Assembly (NCBI RefSeq): GCF_900096945.1
Contig: NZ_FMKA01000001.1
Span: forward strand, 426,291 to 490,290
Source of the DNA: Anaerobium acetethylicum
GTDB lineage: Bacteria; Bacillota; Clostridia; Lachnospirales; Lachnospiraceae
Direction of reading: 5' to 3'
DNA: 64,000 bases
The notes beneath the pieces were generated by a model, which saw nothing but the letters and a program-made list of their open reading frames with translations, had not been told where the DNA came from and searched no databases. The position numbers and the translations under genes were made by a program. Each line of letters begins with the position of its first letter. Position 1 is the stretch's first letter. Below, piece by piece: positions 13,501-61,740 of this stretch.

Positions 13501-13642
13501 GTAACTATTCAGGACTACGTCCGTCATAGTCACAAATGATGTACACAAATTGCAAAATCAGCAATTTGGGGCACGCATGTCTCGGGTTTTATGCAAATTC
13601 AGCATAAAAACACCTCGCGAGACAGGGGTTCTGAACAGTTAC
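13501..13642 (+). mobile_element. family A MITE-like element, copy A1 (142 bp, ~15-bp imperfect TIRs) with perfect 8-bp TSD aattattc
   Basis: gtaactattcaggac...gttctgaacagttac; flanks 13493-13500 and 13643-13650 both aattattc; >85% identical to copies at 55370, 61598, 42516. Confidence 0.8.
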
Positions 13643-19825: not shown

Positions 19826-21214
19826 TTATAATGTGACGTTCAGTTTCCTGCAGCTGTCTTCTATAACAGCTATCAATTCATCGTCTGTAAGCACTGTCAC
19901 ACGGCCTGATTCGTATTCTTCGTCAACCCATACTTTAACCATCTGTACAAGTTCAGAATTCTTGTCGACCTGTCTTTCGTCCTTCAGCTTATAATACGTA
20001 TTAATCCAGTGAGCGATTCCCGCAAGACCGGATGTATTCGATACTGCAACAAGTACCGGACGATTTAAAAACTTCTCAGTATCAAATATATTATAAATCT
20101 CTTCATTTTTCAAGAGTCCGTCTGCATGAATTCCTGCACGGGTGACATTAAAGTTCCTTCCGACGAAAGGAGTCCTTGATGGAACCCTGTATCCGATTTC
20201 ATTTTCGAAGTACTCTGCGAGCTCAGTAATGACCGTGGTATCCATTCCATCAAGTGTTCCTTTAAGCTGCGCGTATTCAAAAACCATTGCCTCAAGAGGG
20301 GTATTTCCTGTTCTTTCGCCGATTCCAAAAAGCGAGCAGTTTACGCTGCAGGCGCCATAGAGCCATGCAGTGGTGGAGTTCGTGACCGCCTTATAGAAAT
20401 CATTGTGTCCATGCCATTCAAGGAGTTCTGACGGAACACCTCCGTGTGTCATCATGCCGTAGATAATTCCCTGAACGGAACGGGGTATAACCGCTCCCGA
20501 AAAATTCACGCCGTAGCCCATTGTATCGCAAGCCCTTATTTTAACCGGAATCTGATATTCTTCCATCAGTTTCATGAGTTCCAGGCAGAAAGGAATTACA
20601 AATCCATAGATATCTGAACGGGTGATGTCTTCCAGGTGGCATCTTGGACTGACGCCTGTTTCAAGACATTCTCTGACCACTCCAAGATAATGATTCATAG
20701 CTTCACTTCTGGTCATCTTCATCTTATAGAAAATATGGTAGTCGGAACAGCTTACCAGGATACCCGTTTCCTTCATGCCAAGATCCTTGACAAGTTCAAA
20801 ATCCTTTTTGCTTGCACGGATCCAGCTTGTTACTTCAGGGAATTTATATCCCCTTTCCATGCATTTATATACAGCATCCCTGTCCTTTTTGCTATACAGA
20901 AAAAATTCGCTCTGGCGGACAATCCCCTTAGGACCGCCCAGTCTATGCAGATAATCGAACATCGTTACAATCTGCTCTGTTGAGTACGGTGCCCTCGACT
21001 GCTGTCCGTCTCTGAATGTAGTATCTGTAATCCAGATTTCATCAGGCATATTGAGTGGTACGATTCTGTTGTTGAAAGCAATTTTTGGAACCTCGTCATA
21101 CGGGAAAAGATTACGAAAAACATTTGGTTTGTCTACGTCTACCAGATGATACATGTGTTCCTCAAGCTGCAGAAGGTTTGTATGCGGATTCATTTTAACC
21201 GGTCTATTTTCCAT
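19826..21214 (-). CDS. homocitrate/2-isopropylmalate synthase family (DRE-TIM), candidate Re-citrate synthase
   Basis: TTFRDGQQS, HGHND metal site; start MENRPVKM at 21212-21214 with AAAGGAG RBS; partnered with IDH-like gene. Confidence 0.7.
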   Translation of the reverse strand: MENRPVKMNPHTNLLQLEEHMYHLVDVDKPNVFRNLFPYDEVPKIAFNNRIVPLNMPDEIWITDTTFRDGQQSRAPYSTEQIVTMFDYLHRLGGPKGIVRQSEFFLYSKKDRDAVYKCMERGYKFPEVTSWIRASKKDFELVKDLGMKETGILVSCSDYHIFYKMKMTRSEAMNHYLGVVRECLETGVSPRCHLEDITRSDIYGFVIPFCLELMKLMEEYQIPVKIRACDTMGYGVNFSGAVIPRSVQGIIYGMMTHGGVPSELLEWHGHNDFYKAVTNSTTAWLYGACSVNCSLFGIGERTGNTPLEAMVFEYAQLKGTLDGMDTTVITELAEYFENEIGYRVPSRTPFVGRNFNVTRAGIHADGLLKNEEIYNIFDTEKFLNRPVLVAVSNTSGLAGIAHWINTYYKLKDERQVDKNSELVQMVKVWVDEEYESGRVTVLTDDELIAVIEDSCRKLNVTL

Positions 21215-21272
21215 TTTGCTGCATCTCCTTTTCTTATAAATATACATTTTAAATTTTACAGTATAAGTCAAA

Positions 21273-21315
21273 AAACCTTGGTATCATTGTATACAATGAT
21301 ACCAAGGTTTGTCAA
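21273..21315 (-). promoter_or_regulatory. promoter (TTGACA-16-TATACA) overlapped by a perfect 32-bp palindrome (candidate GntR operator)
   Basis: ccttggtatcattgtatacaatgataccaagg at 21276-21307; contains T.GT-N-AC core typical of GntR/FadR sites; -10 sits at the dyad. Confidence 0.5.
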
Positions 21316-21353
21316 CATGTATTTTATCATTTCATTTTCACTTCAATTCACCC

Positions 21354-39921: not shown

Positions 39922-42327
39922 CTATTTCATTACGATGTTGATGATTCTTCCCGGCACATAGATTTCCTTAACAACGTTTCCGGTAAGCTTGTCTGCAATC
40001 GCTTCCCTGCCGGCCGCAATTGCATCTTCTTTGCTGATGTCAGCAGCAATTTTAATGACCATACGTGTCTTGCCGTTAATCTGTACAGCAACTTCGATTT
40101 CGTCATCTTTCATGGCTTCCTCATCATGTTCAGGCCACTGGTTTTCGAATACTGAAGTTTCGTGACCAAGCTGCTCCCATAAGTCCTCTCCGATGTGAGG
40201 GATAAATGGTGCAAGAAGGATTACTGCCGTTTCAAGGGTCTCCTTGTCGATTCCGCCTTCCTTCTTTGCCAGATCGATGAGCTTATTGTTGTACTCCATG
40301 AATCCGCTGACTACCGTGTTGAGGCTGAAGCCTTCCAGACGGGAAGTGATGTCGTAAATCATCTTGTTTCTGACTTTGATCATTTCCTTCGTAGCAGGCA
40401 CATTCTTTTCTTTGTTGTCAGTTACCAGGTTCCAGAAACGGTTGATGAATCTGTAAACGCCGTCAATGCCCCTGTCATCCCATTCTGAATCGAGTTCAGG
40501 CGGTCCAACAAAAAGTTCATACATTCTTAAGGAATCGCAGCCATAATCGTTGACAAGTTCGTCAGGAGAAACAACATTTCCTTTTGACTTGCTCATTTTT
40601 GCTCCGTCCTTGCCGATCATTCCCTGATTGAAGAGCCTTGTGAAAGGTTCGTCGAAGTCTATCACTCCGATATCATTCAGGAATTTCGTATAGAACCTTG
40701 AGTACAGAAGATGGAGAACAGCATGTTCCACCCCGCCGATGTACATATCTACCGGAAGAAGTTTCTCAGCTTTTTCTTTTGAAACAAGCTCTTCCGTATT
40801 GTGGCTGTCTACATAACGCAGGAAATACCATGAGGAGCCTGCCCACTGAGGCATTGTGTTTGTTTCCCTCTTTGCAGGACCGCCGCATACAGGACAGGTG
40901 GTGTTGACCCATTCATGAATGTCTGCAAGAGGTGATTCTCCTGTTCCCGTAGGCTGATAAGATTCAACTTCAGGAAGAAGCAATGGAAGCTGGTCTTCCG
41001 GTACAGGCACGGCTCCGCAGTGTTCGCAGTGAACGATTGGAATCGGTTCACCCCAGTAGCGTTGTCTTGAGAATACCCAGTCCCTTAATTTGTAGTTTGT
41101 AGTCTTTTTGCCGATTCCTCTTGATTCCAGGATTCCAGGAACGTCGCGCTTCGCGTCTGCTGAATTCATTCCGTTGAATTCTCCGGAATTGATCATGATT
41201 CCTGCTTCCGTATAGGCTTCGGTCAGGTTTTCTACTTCAACGCCGTCTTTGGCGATTACCTGGATGATCGGAATATTGAATTTCGTTGCGAAGTCAAAGT
41301 CCCTGTCATCGTGGGCAGGCACGCACATGATTGCGCCTGTACCGTAGTCAGCCAGTACATAGTCTGAAATCCAGATTGGAACCATTGCTCCGTTTAATGG
41401 GTTCACTGCATAGCTTCCTGTGAATACGCCTGTTTTTTCCTTGTCCTGAAGACGGTCAACGGATGATCTCATGGAAGCTTTAAAAATATAGTCTTCCACT
41501 TCTGCTTTTTTATCATCTGTCGCAAGCGATTTTGCAAGTTCATGTTCCGGTGCCAGGACCATGAATGTTGCGCCATAAAGGGTATCCGGCCTTGTCGTGT
41601 AGACCTTCACGGTTTCTTCCCTGCCCTCTACCGCAAAATCAACTTCTGCGCCGTAGCTCTTGCCGATCCAGTCAGACTGCATCTTCTTCACTTTTTCAGG
41701 CCAGTCGAGCTTATCAAGGTCGTCTAACAATCTGTCTGCATAAGCGGTGATTTTAAGCATCCACTGTCTTAAGTTTTTCTTTGTTACAGGTGATCCGCAG
41801 CGTTCGCATTCGCCGTTAACAACTTCTTCATTTGCGAGACCTGTCTTACATGACGGACACCAGTTGATCGGCATCTGCTTTTCATATGCAAGGCCGGCTT
41901 TGAACATTTTAACGAAAATCCACTGGGTCCATTTGTAGAATTCAGGATCCGTTGTGTTTACTTCCATATCCCAGTCGTAGATTGCTGCGATTTCATTGAT
42001 CTGCCTCTTGATGTTTGCAACATTCTCGGCTGTGGATTTTTTAGGATGCACGCCCATCTTGATTGCATAATTTTCAGCCGGAAGGCCGAATGCATCCCAT
42101 CCCATTGGATGGATGATGTAGTAGCCCTTGAGCATTTTGTAACGGCTCCATACATCGCTGATTACATATCCCCTCCAGTGCCCAACATGGAGACCGCTGC
42201 CTGATGGATACGGGAACATATCCAGACAGTAATACTTTGGTTTCTTTCCATCATTTACATTTACGGGATTTGCTTCCCATTTCTTGCGCCATTTCGATTC
42301 TACTTCCTTATGATTATAAGATGACAT
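39922..42327 (-). CDS. leuS: leucine--tRNA ligase
   Basis: 801 aa; HVGH and KMSKS motifs. Confidence 0.97.
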   Translation of the reverse strand: MSSYNHKEVESKWRKKWEANPVNVNDGKKPKYYCLDMFPYPSGSGLHVGHWRGYVISDVWSRYKMLKGYYIIHPMGWDAFGLPAENYAIKMGVHPKKSTAENVANIKRQINEIAAIYDWDMEVNTTDPEFYKWTQWIFVKMFKAGLAYEKQMPINWCPSCKTGLANEEVVNGECERCGSPVTKKNLRQWMLKITAYADRLLDDLDKLDWPEKVKKMQSDWIGKSYGAEVDFAVEGREETVKVYTTRPDTLYGATFMVLAPEHELAKSLATDDKKAEVEDYIFKASMRSSVDRLQDKEKTGVFTGSYAVNPLNGAMVPIWISDYVLADYGTGAIMCVPAHDDRDFDFATKFNIPIIQVIAKDGVEVENLTEAYTEAGIMINSGEFNGMNSADAKRDVPGILESRGIGKKTTNYKLRDWVFSRQRYWGEPIPIVHCEHCGAVPVPEDQLPLLLPEVESYQPTGTGESPLADIHEWVNTTCPVCGGPAKRETNTMPQWAGSSWYFLRYVDSHNTEELVSKEKAEKLLPVDMYIGGVEHAVLHLLYSRFYTKFLNDIGVIDFDEPFTRLFNQGMIGKDGAKMSKSKGNVVSPDELVNDYGCDSLRMYELFVGPPELDSEWDDRGIDGVYRFINRFWNLVTDNKEKNVPATKEMIKVRNKMIYDITSRLEGFSLNTVVSGFMEYNNKLIDLAKKEGGIDKETLETAVILLAPFIPHIGEDLWEQLGHETSVFENQWPEHDEEAMKDDEIEVAVQINGKTRMVIKIAADISKEDAIAAGREAIADKLTGNVVKEIYVPGRIINIVMK

Positions 42328-42404
42328 TTTTATTCCTCCTGAAATTTATTATTATTCTGAGTGATTTTGATTTATGGGAAATTCGTAGAATTTCCTATAA
42401 AGAC

Positions 42405-42514
42405 TAGCGTGTCAAAAGCCCTCTCGCAACCTTCGGCTTCGTCAATTTGCACATTCGCCATCCAGCAAGCAGTGATGCAAAACATGATTCAATGAGCAGC
42501 TTTATGAAGACGTT
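42405..42514 (+). repeat. family B repeat, truncated copy B1
   Basis: gtgtcaaaagccc...ttcgtcaatttgcacatt...gtgatgcaaa...tgaagacgt; aligns to 60928..61080. Confidence 0.6.
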
Positions 42515-42515
42515 G

Positions 42516-42657
42516 GTAACCATTCCGGACTACGTCCTTCATAGTTACATATGATGCACACAAATTGCAGGAACTGCAATTTGGTGCACGCCGAACTCGG
42601 GTTTTTATGCAAAAGCAGCATAAAAACACCTCGCGTCACCGGACTTCTGAACAGTCA
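42516..42657 (+). mobile_element. family A element copy A2 (diverged termini, no TSD)
   Basis: gtaaccattccggactacgtccttcatag...caaattgcag-gaa-ctgcaatttg...ttttatgc..gcataaaa...ttctgaacagtc. Confidence 0.75.
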
Positions 42658-42671
42658 AACCATTGGTACGC

Positions 42672-42823
42672 AAGGCCGCTAAATGCGCGGCCCTACGTAC
42701 CACTACGTCTTCATCTAAGCGAGAGCGCGCTGCGAATGAACATGTTTTGCATCACGTCCTCATTCTCGAAACTTGTGCAAATTGACGAACACTATTTTGT
42801 AAATGGGCTTTTGACACTCCACT
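42672..42823 (-). repeat. family B repeat copy B2 (inverted relative to B1)
   Basis: rc aligns over ~150 nt to 60928..61080 (gtggagtgtcaaa...gatgaagacgtagtggtacgtagggccgc). Confidence 0.65.
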
Positions 42824-42833
42824 CCTATAAATC

Positions 42834-43150
42834 AAAAAAGCCTTTTCATCCTGAACATATTCCTATATTCATAGAGACGAAAAGGCTGAACTCGCGGTAC
42901 CACTCTAATTCATCCTGCACTGCAGGATGCACTCATTTTTCTATAACGGGAATCAGCCGCCTTTTTCTACTCAGGAACGATATCTTTACAGCCTGATGTT
43001 ATCCCGGCATGTATGAAATCTTCAGTTTCAAAAAAGGAACTCCAAGGCGAGTTGGGAGTTTTCAGGTACTGCCTCACACCTTCCGGCAGTTCTCTGGGAC
43101 CTTATGACTCTTAATACTCCTCTTCACAGTATTTACAATATTGCACTAAA
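42834..43150 (-). ncRNA. T-box riboswitch leader, candidate Leu (CUC) specifier, with terminator hairpin + U-tract
   Basis: minus-strand AATTAGAGTGGTACCGCG (plus 42893-42910); terminator agccttttc/gaaaaggct + U6 at 42834-42887; AGUA and AGAGA stem-I elements; CUC in candidate specifier loop. Confidence 0.7.
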
Positions 43151-43154
43151 AATA

Positions 43155-43183
43155 ATTTTAAGCACTTGCTGTCCTTTTGTCAA
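43155..43183 (-). promoter_or_regulatory. promoter of T-box leader (TTGACA-17-TAAAAT)
   Basis: consensus -35 and near-consensus -10 on minus strand. Confidence 0.5.
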
Positions 43184-43258
43184 GGACTTTATCTGACAAC
43201 TCGCATTAACTAAGTAACCAACAGTAACCCGATCCATCCTCCCGACTTTCACATGAGA

Positions 43259-48433: not shown

Positions 48434-48767
48434 TTTAATGCCTCCTTATAGGTTGCTGATTTTGTTAAATACTACTTATTCTAACAGTTTTGCAGGAAAA
48501 TAACAACCAGCTTGTCAACATAAACGGACAGGGCACCGGAACATCATTCTCCGATACCCTGTCCAATTGACTGCCTGCAGATATCCACTCCTATCAGCCG
48601 GCATCTATACCCTATACCTACGGATTGTTCCGCACTTTGTGCTCCCACAATCCTGAAAACATGAGAAATCCGCCCTGTTCGGGCTGCTTTCTCATGTTTT
48701 GCGGGTCCCAAAGTCATGCTTTTTCATGCAAGCATGAAACACATGACCTTTTGACCCTGGTATCATA

Positions 48768-55331: not shown

Positions 55332-55369
55332 TCCGTCATCCCCCTTTTTTATTATTACTTTGTTTATTA

Positions 55370-55512
55370 GTAACTGTTCCGAACCCCTGTCTCGCGAGGT
55401 GTTTTTATGCTGAATTTGCATGAAAATCCGAGACATACGTGCGCCAAATTTCTGATTTTGCAATTTGTGTGCATCAAATGTGACTATGAAGGACATAGTC
55501 CTGAATAGTTAC
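55370..55512 (-). mobile_element. family A element copy A3 with perfect 8-bp TSD gtttatta
   Basis: flanks 55362-55369 and 55513-55520 identical; TIRs gtaactgttccgaac / gtaactattcaggac. Confidence 0.8.
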
Positions 55513-55688
55513 GTTTATTATATCACATGGCTTCCTCTGGTGATATCACCAAATTTTTCCAAACACATAAATGCCGGCTTGGTTTCAGAAACACATACAT
55601 TGACAGATGTAAATGTGACTGCTATTATATTAGAAATACCAGTCAGCTTTTCAATCATGGAATTACATTTCAAAGGAGGATTTCGTTC

Positions 55689-60914: not shown

Positions 60915-60927
60915 GGTTTTTTTACAA

Positions 60928-61080
60928 GTGGAGTGTCAAAGGCCCCTTTCAACATAATATTCGTCAATTTGCACATTTTTTATAATGAGGACGTGATGCA
61001 AATCGTGTTCATGCGCAGCGCACTCTCGCTTAGATGAAGACGTAGTGGTACGTAGGGCCGCAAAATACGCGACCAGCTCC
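60928..61080 (+). repeat. family B repeat copy B3 (full length ~153 bp)
   Basis: gtggagtgtcaaaggcccc...cgtcaatttgcaca...gtgatgcaaa...gatgaagacgtagtggtacgtagggccgc. Confidence 0.65.
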
Positions 61081-61082
61081 AT

Positions 61083-61126
61083 AAAAAAACTGCAGGCTAT
61101 ATAAAATATAGCCTGCAGTTTTTTTA
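61083..61126. terminator. bidirectional rho-independent terminator (znuA / MIF-like gene)
   Basis: A7-ctgcaggctatat-aaaa-tatagcctgcag-T7. Confidence 0.7.
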
Positions 61127-61597: not shown

Positions 61598-61740
61598 GTA
61601 ACTATTCAGGACTACGTCCTTCATAGTCACAGATGATGCACACAAATTGCAAAACCAGCAATTTGACGCCTAGAGAACTCAGGTTTTTATGCAAAATCAG
61701 CATAAAAACACCTCGCGAAACGGGCGTTCTGAACAGTTAC
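61598..61740 (+). mobile_element. family A element copy A4 with 8-bp TSD (gattgttt/gattattt, 7/8)
   Basis: gtaactattcaggactacgtccttcatag...gttctgaacagttac. Confidence 0.8.

Follow-up and report, generated by a model that had tools for sequence, protein, structure and literature searches.

Two nested non-autonomous MITEs very probably occupy the spacer between the T-box terminator and the ribosome-binding site of leuS in Anaerobium acetethylicum, with leuS still under the control of T-box read-through. The window, by which we mean the whole 64-kb stretch of DNA that was analysed, came from A. acetethylicum (Lachnospiraceae), and its 801-aa ORF was 100% identical to the leucine-tRNA ligase (LeuRS) of this species. 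The outer element, B-B, is best read as one palindromic MITE of about 270 bp, whose two unequal arms had earlier been listed as the separate repeats B2 and B1. The inner element, A, is a second MITE that lies at the start of the right arm of B-B.

The T-box leader of leuS

A covariance-model search matched the T-box of the window to RF00230 over the full length of the model (positions 1-219), and the T-box was the sole Rfam match at E<=1 across 42200-43250, therefore A and B are not described RNA families. The window shares with canonical Firmicute T-box-leuS leaders (RF00230) the promoter, the Stem I with a CUC specifier, the T-box sequence, the terminator and leuS downstream (Table 1), whereas it differs from them in spacing: because of the two insertions the leuS ATG lies 542 nt past the T-box model, and in close relatives it lies 79-127 nt past it. 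The terminator hairpin (AGCCUUUUCGUC...GAUGAAAAGGCU, then U6) is separated from the leuS ATG by a gap of 506 nt, about 430 nt of which are repeat DNA. This agrees with the original prediction, which had described the gap as mostly repeats and whose coordinates were right within a few bases. Downstream of the insertion the native spacer keeps a hairpin of its own, and a similar one was recognized by eye in the relative L010.

A 143-aa ORF on the opposite strand (42565..42996, plus strand) was rejected as spurious. It was the single ORF of at least 50 aa overlapping A. It crosses the T-box and its terminator in antisense, and its start, located within A, is missing from A-empty alleles such as that of L002.

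Table 1. Positions in the window of the leuS leader features, of the nested insertions and of the other copies of A and B-B.
Feature	Position	Strand	Details
leuS-leader promoter, sigma-70 type	43155..43183	-	TTGACA-17-TAAAAT, 11/12; kept in L002/L004
T-box leader	42870..43136	-	Rfam RF00230, 120.8 bits versus a gathering score of 93
Leu specifier CUC	43051..43049	-	followed by G; read by eye from the cmscan alignment
T-box sequence	42906..42893	-	AGAGUGGUACCGCG; upstream of the terminator
T-box intrinsic terminator, intact	42834..42887	-	stem and U6, -26.2 kcal/mol, z -3.8
B-B target duplication, copy 1	42823..42831	.	TTTATAGGA on the leuS strand; 9/9 identical to the copy at 42393-42401
B-B left arm (earlier B2)	42702..42822	-	starts with terminal repeat GTGGAGTGTCAAAAGCCC
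B-B apex hairpin	42665..42701	-	GGTACGTAGGGCCGC-GCATTTA-GCGGCCTTGCGTACC
MITE A at leuS	42516..42658	-	143 nt, located 6 nt past (3') the apex hairpin of B-B, where the right arm begins; absent from L002 and L004
B-B right arm (earlier B1)	42402..42515	-	ends with terminal repeat GGGCTTTTGACACGCTAGTC; the TTGACA within it faces outward
B-B target duplication, copy 2	42393..42401	.	TTTATAGGA
Native spacer hairpin	42371..42401	-	UUUAUAGGAAAUUC-UAC-GAAUUUCCCAUAAA; B-B inserted at its 5' base
leuS with ribosome-binding site	39922..42340	-	ORF 42327..39922, ATG 42327, 801 aa; ribosome-binding site AGGAGG 42340..42335
MITE A copy	13501..13642	-	target duplication AATTATTC, 8/8
MITE A copy	55370..55512	+	target duplication GTTTATTA, 8/8; also in L132
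MITE A copy	61598..61740	-	target duplication GATTGTTT/GATTATTT, 7/8; also in L132
Second B-B copy, left arm and apex	60919..61074	+	about 369 nt shorter than in L132 at junction 61074/61083

The uninterrupted leader in relatives

The same T-box was located directly upstream of leuS in L009, L010, L011, L007 and L002. Between the T-box model's end and the leuS ATG there were 79 nt in L009, 127 nt in L010/L011 and 102 nt in L007 (range 79-127), and 393 nt in L002. LeuRS was about 87% identical to that of the window in L009 and L010/L011, and diverged in L007. (The LeuRS call of L007, P0005, has 991 aa, and the 992-aa LeuRS of L006, P0001, has an internal duplication of residues ~54-246 that is probably an assembly artefact; neither bears on the leader.) B-B was absent from the leuS leaders of L009, L010/L011 and L007. 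In L008, a 95% relative, it was absent at the right-hand junction: the 85 nt upstream of its leuS ATG contained no B1 sequence, and upstream of leuS we observed an apparent terminator U-tract and then a TTGATGGAAAG site resembling the uninterrupted target.

The comparison with repeat-free relatives, which the original prediction had asked for, thus found the T-box directly upstream of leuS. The Leu specifier CUC and the same T-box-leuS pairing in relatives assign the T-box to leuS, as had been presumed, and since relatives carry this pairing, the alternative that the T-box was the leader of a gene lost here was ruled out. The ancestral order was promoter, Leu T-box, terminator, short spacer and leuS.

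B-B is one palindromic element

On the leuS strand the order was GGCTTTTTTGA, TTTATAGGA, GTGGAGTGTCAAAAGCCC ... GGGCTTTTGACACGCTAGTC, TTTATAGGA, AATTC, so that a perfect 9-bp direct repeat brackets the whole B2...B1 unit, and it does so in the window and in L002/L004. B2 (42687-42831) was 87.6% identical, in inverted orientation, to 60919-61061 (E 1e-45). B1 (42409-42491) was 72% reverse-complementary to B2 (E 2e-4), a match that is weak taken alone and was confirmed by the other B-B copy in L132, the right arm of which was 91% identical to B1. Indeed, in the L132 comparison left arms matched left arms at 90-94% (both B2 and the solo B at 60919) and right arms matched right arms at 91%, whereas left and right arms matched each other at just 72%. 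Because the L132 counterpart of the solo B was a complete two-armed element, B1 is a normal, shorter right arm and not a cut-down B. The "truncated B1" of the original prediction was accordingly replaced by an arm that is naturally shorter than the left one, and its two B copies flanking A by a single palindromic MITE that predates A, which was inserted later in some strains.

The insertion of B-B took place 2 nt past the terminator U-tract, with duplication of TTTATAGGA, and because it begins 2 nt after U6, the terminator and the U-tract were left untouched. B-B was kept at leuS in 3/3 A. acetethylicum assemblies spanning the site.

The second B-B copy of the window lacks a stretch of about 369 nt at 61074/61083 that comprises the right arm, an insert designated C and about 90 nt of flank, and we read this difference as a deletion in the window. 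Insert C (L132 8084-8249, about 165 nt) is a third insert with its own hairpins, located in the B-B right arm downstream of a ZnuA-like gene, and neither the window nor the loci fetched earlier than L132 contained a further copy of it. Therefore, the two B-B copies each host a different nested insert, C in the L132 copy and A in the leuS copy. A bidirectional terminator (~61087-61125) was also observed directly after the solo B (60919-61083).

When the window was compared with L002, leuS itself differed by 0.25% and the T-box by 1.5%, whereas the values for the left arm (8.9%), the right arm (19%) and the spacer up to the ATG (10.7%) were far higher than this background. Simple vertical descent of a neutral insert does not account for the divergence from B2 to the ATG, which suggests either that a recombination tract brought in a diverged allele of the leader or that the palindrome has changed at an accelerated rate.

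The second MITE, A, inside B-B

Element A is 142-143 nt long and has 12-bp terminal inverted repeats, GTAACTGTTCAG / CTGAATAGTTAC in three copies and degenerate at leuS (TTGACTGTTCAG / CCGGAATGGTTAC). The leuS copy showed 81-84% identity to the three other copies of the window (E 1e-34 to 1e-41), and the predicted fold of A was a four-way junction (z -5.3 to -7.0). The target duplication of A at leuS is not clean, matching at 3/8 positions in register and at 5/8 with a shift of one base. The metagenomic strains L002 (JGI) and L004 (ENA), whose LeuRS is one residue off that of the window, have B-B without A, and the surplus of the window over this A-empty allele was about 151 nt (= 143 + 8), starting 6 nt past the apex hairpin. 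Because both other A copies covered by L132 are common to the strains while the leuS site is empty in L002/L004, A at leuS is a recent strain-level polymorphism. A, with its GTAACTGTTCAG/CTGAATAGTTAC ends and 8-bp duplications, entered B-B in the lineage of the sequenced strain. Since A-empty B-B alleles and insert-free relatives both exist, the order of events was T-box-leuS, then B-B, then A. That the repeats are insertions, as had been proposed, is borne out by the target duplications, by the A-empty site in L002/L004 and by the relatives with 79-127 nt spacing. Being short and without coding capacity, and having terminal repeats, fixed-length duplications, dispersed copies and polymorphism, A fits the description of a prokaryotic MITE.

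The JGI metagenomes scanned with an invariant A 20-mer gave three chance matches and nothing else. Because A is present in the ENA strain L132, this negative reflects the collection and not an absence of A. Short-read assemblies, including contigs of the same strain, were interrupted within A and B, as multicopy repeats would lead one to expect.

Some other observations were made on A and on the window. One A copy with its duplication takes about 150 of the 194 nt (55334-55527) between a divergent flavodoxin-like gene and a DUF2703 operon, and because A occupies most of this gap, at least one of the two promoters lies in A or reads through it. The motif ATGAAG(N1-2)CGTAGT was common to A (e.g. 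42516-42545) and to B-B left arms (e.g. 42705-42725), and could be a common binding site or chance. A full-length Clostridiales-1 RNA (RF01699, 114.9 bits) was located at 48612-48765 on the minus strand between two minus-strand ORFs, with no blastn similarity to A or B. An inverted repeat of two perfectly adjacent 41-nt halves (21251-21332, 78% complementary) lies at the 5' end of the ORF 19826..21271 (minus strand) and extends into the gap before 21514.

Folding and covariation of B-B

The fold-back of B-B was 93% paired across eight copies. Compensatory double changes were present in 27/80 B-B pairs, a number that 0/500 shuffles reached, and slid controls gave 3-7. Compensation was also seen between leuS alleles, with GTGATGCAAAACATG/CATGTTTTGCATCAC in the window against GTCATACAAAACATG/CATGTTTTGTATGAC in L002. 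The 601-nt leader folded with an MFE of -250.9 kcal/mol (z -11.5) and with B2 paired to B1, in keeping with the very long stem that had been suggested for the inverted B arms, and the predicted fold contained near-perfect B2:B1 duplex stretches of 13-16 bp.

No strand-specific signal was found in B-B: G-U cells numbered ~22-27 versus ~16 A-C cells, and the sense and antisense energies went both ways. Because such a signal is absent, the constraint on B-B may act on DNA as readily as on RNA, and on DNA it may work via arm-to-arm correction or a transposition requirement. The palindromes of ERIC elements show the same behaviour.

The apex loop was GCATTTA in the window and AAAATAC in the other copies examined, and is closer to the reverse complement. 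Over 13 nt the window loop had 2 mismatches to the reverse complement of the other copies and 5 to their direct sequence, and the centre of the palindrome has probably been flipped in the window.

B-B in other genomes

A conserved B 16-mer was scanned against one genome per species. The listed matches were mostly chance, and at least about 20 true B-B relatives were among the matches listed, in Lachnospiraceae and Bacillota genomes. Units of full length (269-273 bp), all intergenic, were present in Anaerocolumna sedimenticola, Anaerosporobacter mobilis, Lachnoclostridium sp. UBA1308 and several Bacillota MAGs, with terminal inverted repeats near GATTCGRGTGTCAAAAGC, the same unequal arms and the apex loop TAAAATACA. 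Moreover, terminal-repeat pairs near GATTCGRGTGTCAAAAGC were spaced 110-280 bp apart in many loci. Several B-B copies per genome were found in the MAGs SIG294, OH_CBlB_10 and OH_SBrB_98, and two copies in the window region. The target duplication was CTAATTAT (8/8) in A. sedimenticola and 7/8 in Lachnoclostridium UBA1308. Among the full-length units, legible duplications were of 8 bp (CTAATTAT, 8/8; ATATATAT, 7/8). By locus, the duplications were 9/9 in the window, 8/8 in L032, 7/8 in L087 and degenerate elsewhere. With terminal repeats, a target duplication, multiple copies in several genomes and empty sites, B-B also fits a prokaryotic MITE.

Many B-B flanks resemble (T)TATAGGA. B-B was also seen to recur ~2-15 nt past terminator-like hairpins with T-tracts, beside (T)TATAGGA-like sequence (L060, L061, L065, L109 and the window). 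These observations suggest that the target is preferred for its sequence or its context. Terminal-repeat pairs spaced 0.7-3 kb apart, as an autonomous IS would have them, were looked for in the window and the fetched loci and none was found for either A or B-B, and the whole block had no blastn match to plasmids. The repeats may resemble IS6-family ends (GGTTCTGTTGCAAAGTTT, 8-bp duplication); no such relation is claimed here.

Transcription of leuS

On the leuS strand no promoter of at least 10/12 was found in 42328-42833. The best promoter-like site in the gap was TTCCCA-18-AATAAT (42380..42351, 9/12), located in the native spacer, and the promoter scan yielded no more sites than shuffled sequence. 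No hairpin followed by a U-run was found within the insert on the leuS strand, either by a terminator scan (which missed the T-box terminator too) or by eye. Because neither element has a credible promoter or terminator, we infer that leuS transcription still starts at the T-box promoter and remains under the gate of antitermination, and continued T-box control of leuS is the most likely state. The T-box scored about 120 bits in both A-filled and A-empty alleles, an intactness that says little on selection since the insertions because the strains are just ~1% diverged.

In the mechanism that we propose, transcription of leuS would begin at the promoter that precedes the T-box, and tRNA-Leu-dependent antitermination would gate it. 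The 5'UTR of the read-through RNA, about 820 nt long, would contain the modelled B2:B1 duplex with the A junction as its cap, and the 13-16-bp duplex stretches would, by analogy with Correia elements, be plausible RNase III substrates. The main effect of the elements would then be on the processing or stability of the leader, and not on the Leu-sensing decision.

We consider it improbable that leuS has instead been insulated from the T-box and is driven by a promoter created by or near a MITE. A perfect TTGACA in the right terminal repeat (42415..42410) does face leuS and could form part of a hybrid promoter, but the AATTCT found 17 nt further on matches the -10 consensus at just 3/6 positions. 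The 9/12 site at 42380..42351 is the other candidate, yet it was not kept in L002 (8/12 site at best) and arose from a scan no richer than shuffles. The very stable structure of about 420 nt might, as modelled, impede elongation or trigger cleavage of the read-through RNA and so also speak for uncoupling, whereas the T-box and the 11/12 promoter were fully intact in both alleles. Of the two outcomes that the original prediction had set against each other, read-through transcripts carrying the elements are favoured over uncoupling with a new promoter.

It is equally doubtful that B-B, A or both are domesticated RNA modules, kept in the leader for their transcribed structure and more than passengers, for example as an RNase III site at which the T-box leader is cut off and a stabilised leuS mRNA is left behind, or as a protein-binding four-way junction. 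The strong covariation of the B-B hairpin across genera and the conserved sequences of its apex and internal loops would fit such a role, but in a palindromic MITE covariation can also arise when one arm corrects the other as DNA, and B-B has no strand-specific signal. Likewise, in the co-directional contexts examined 7/8 B-B copies and 4/4 A copies (these sense to the downstream gene) were sense to their neighbours, counts that are too small for significance. In 4/4 copies the sense RNA of A folded better than the antisense RNA, by 3.5-11 kcal/mol, which is a hint and not a test. Finally, the presence of B-B at leuS in all three assemblies spanning the site would favour such a role, whereas the polymorphism of the leuS A copy between near-identical strains and the variation of the second B-B copy between strains (right arm lost or gained, another insert) speak against it. 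There is a small chance that B-B, and possibly A, is a transcribed structural module, in the form of a covarying hairpin of ~270 nt with conserved loops, that prefers to land in sense just 3' of terminators and that in the leuS leader adds a second layer to T-box control via RNase III processing or mRNA stabilisation; if so, the natural A-filled and A-empty alleles would differ in leuS expression.

That two independent, opposite B insertions merely chance to flank A is very hard to credit, since the solo B at 60919-61074, the one feature of the window in its favour, is a full two-armed element in L132, a single 9/9 duplication surrounds the whole B2...B1 unit, and the two-armed unequal unit recurs in other genomes.

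Comparison with known systems

Correia repeat-enclosed elements (CREE) of Neisseria, which duplicate TA, are similar to A and B-B in being non-coding MITEs with terminal inverted repeats in intergenic DNA. Previous studies described CREE as elements of ~100-160 bp that are co-transcribed into 5'UTRs, whose terminal-repeat hairpins are RNase III substrates and whose ends can carry promoter hexamers (PMC2649163; PMC10969869). In contrast, A and B-B are without sequence relation to CREE and have 8-9-bp duplications, and the palindrome of B-B takes up all of its ~270 bp. For A and B-B, cleavage by RNase III and promoter function are putative.

ERIC/IRU elements of Enterobacteria, the hairpins of which are kept by compensatory change, resemble B-B as whole-length imperfect palindromes in transcribed intergenic regions, found across genera. 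Unlike them, B-B is twice as long and occurs in Lachnospiraceae/Bacillota, its terminal repeats are clear, and it comes with duplications of 8-9 bp and a target that is TATAGGA-like. Effects on mRNA stability have been reported for ERIC elements (PMC10969869; PMC3184786).

The BOX, RUP and SPRITE elements of Streptococcus pneumoniae are small Firmicute repeats that are transcribed with their neighbours and can nest or combine (PMC3049150). They differ from A and B-B in sequence, modular architecture and duplication length, and within the literature searched there was no report of BOX, RUP or SPRITE between a T-box and its gene.

Implications

A and B-B appear to be two previously undescribed Lachnospiraceae MITE families, nested in a T-box leader. 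The insertion lengthens the leader of the leuS mRNA by about 430 bases, which is an ordinary kind of event and no surprise to a specialist, and the understanding of T-boxes and of MITEs is unchanged by it. Both families break short-read assemblies, and the covariation of the B-B hairpin is unusually strong. The distance of 542 nt observed here calls for caution with distance cut-offs in the assignment of riboswitches to genes. Further, the leuS leader offers a natural allelic series, with no insert in sister lineages, B-B only in the metagenomic strains and B-B with A in the sequenced strain, which allows asking how much structured RNA a T-box leader tolerates before the start codon.
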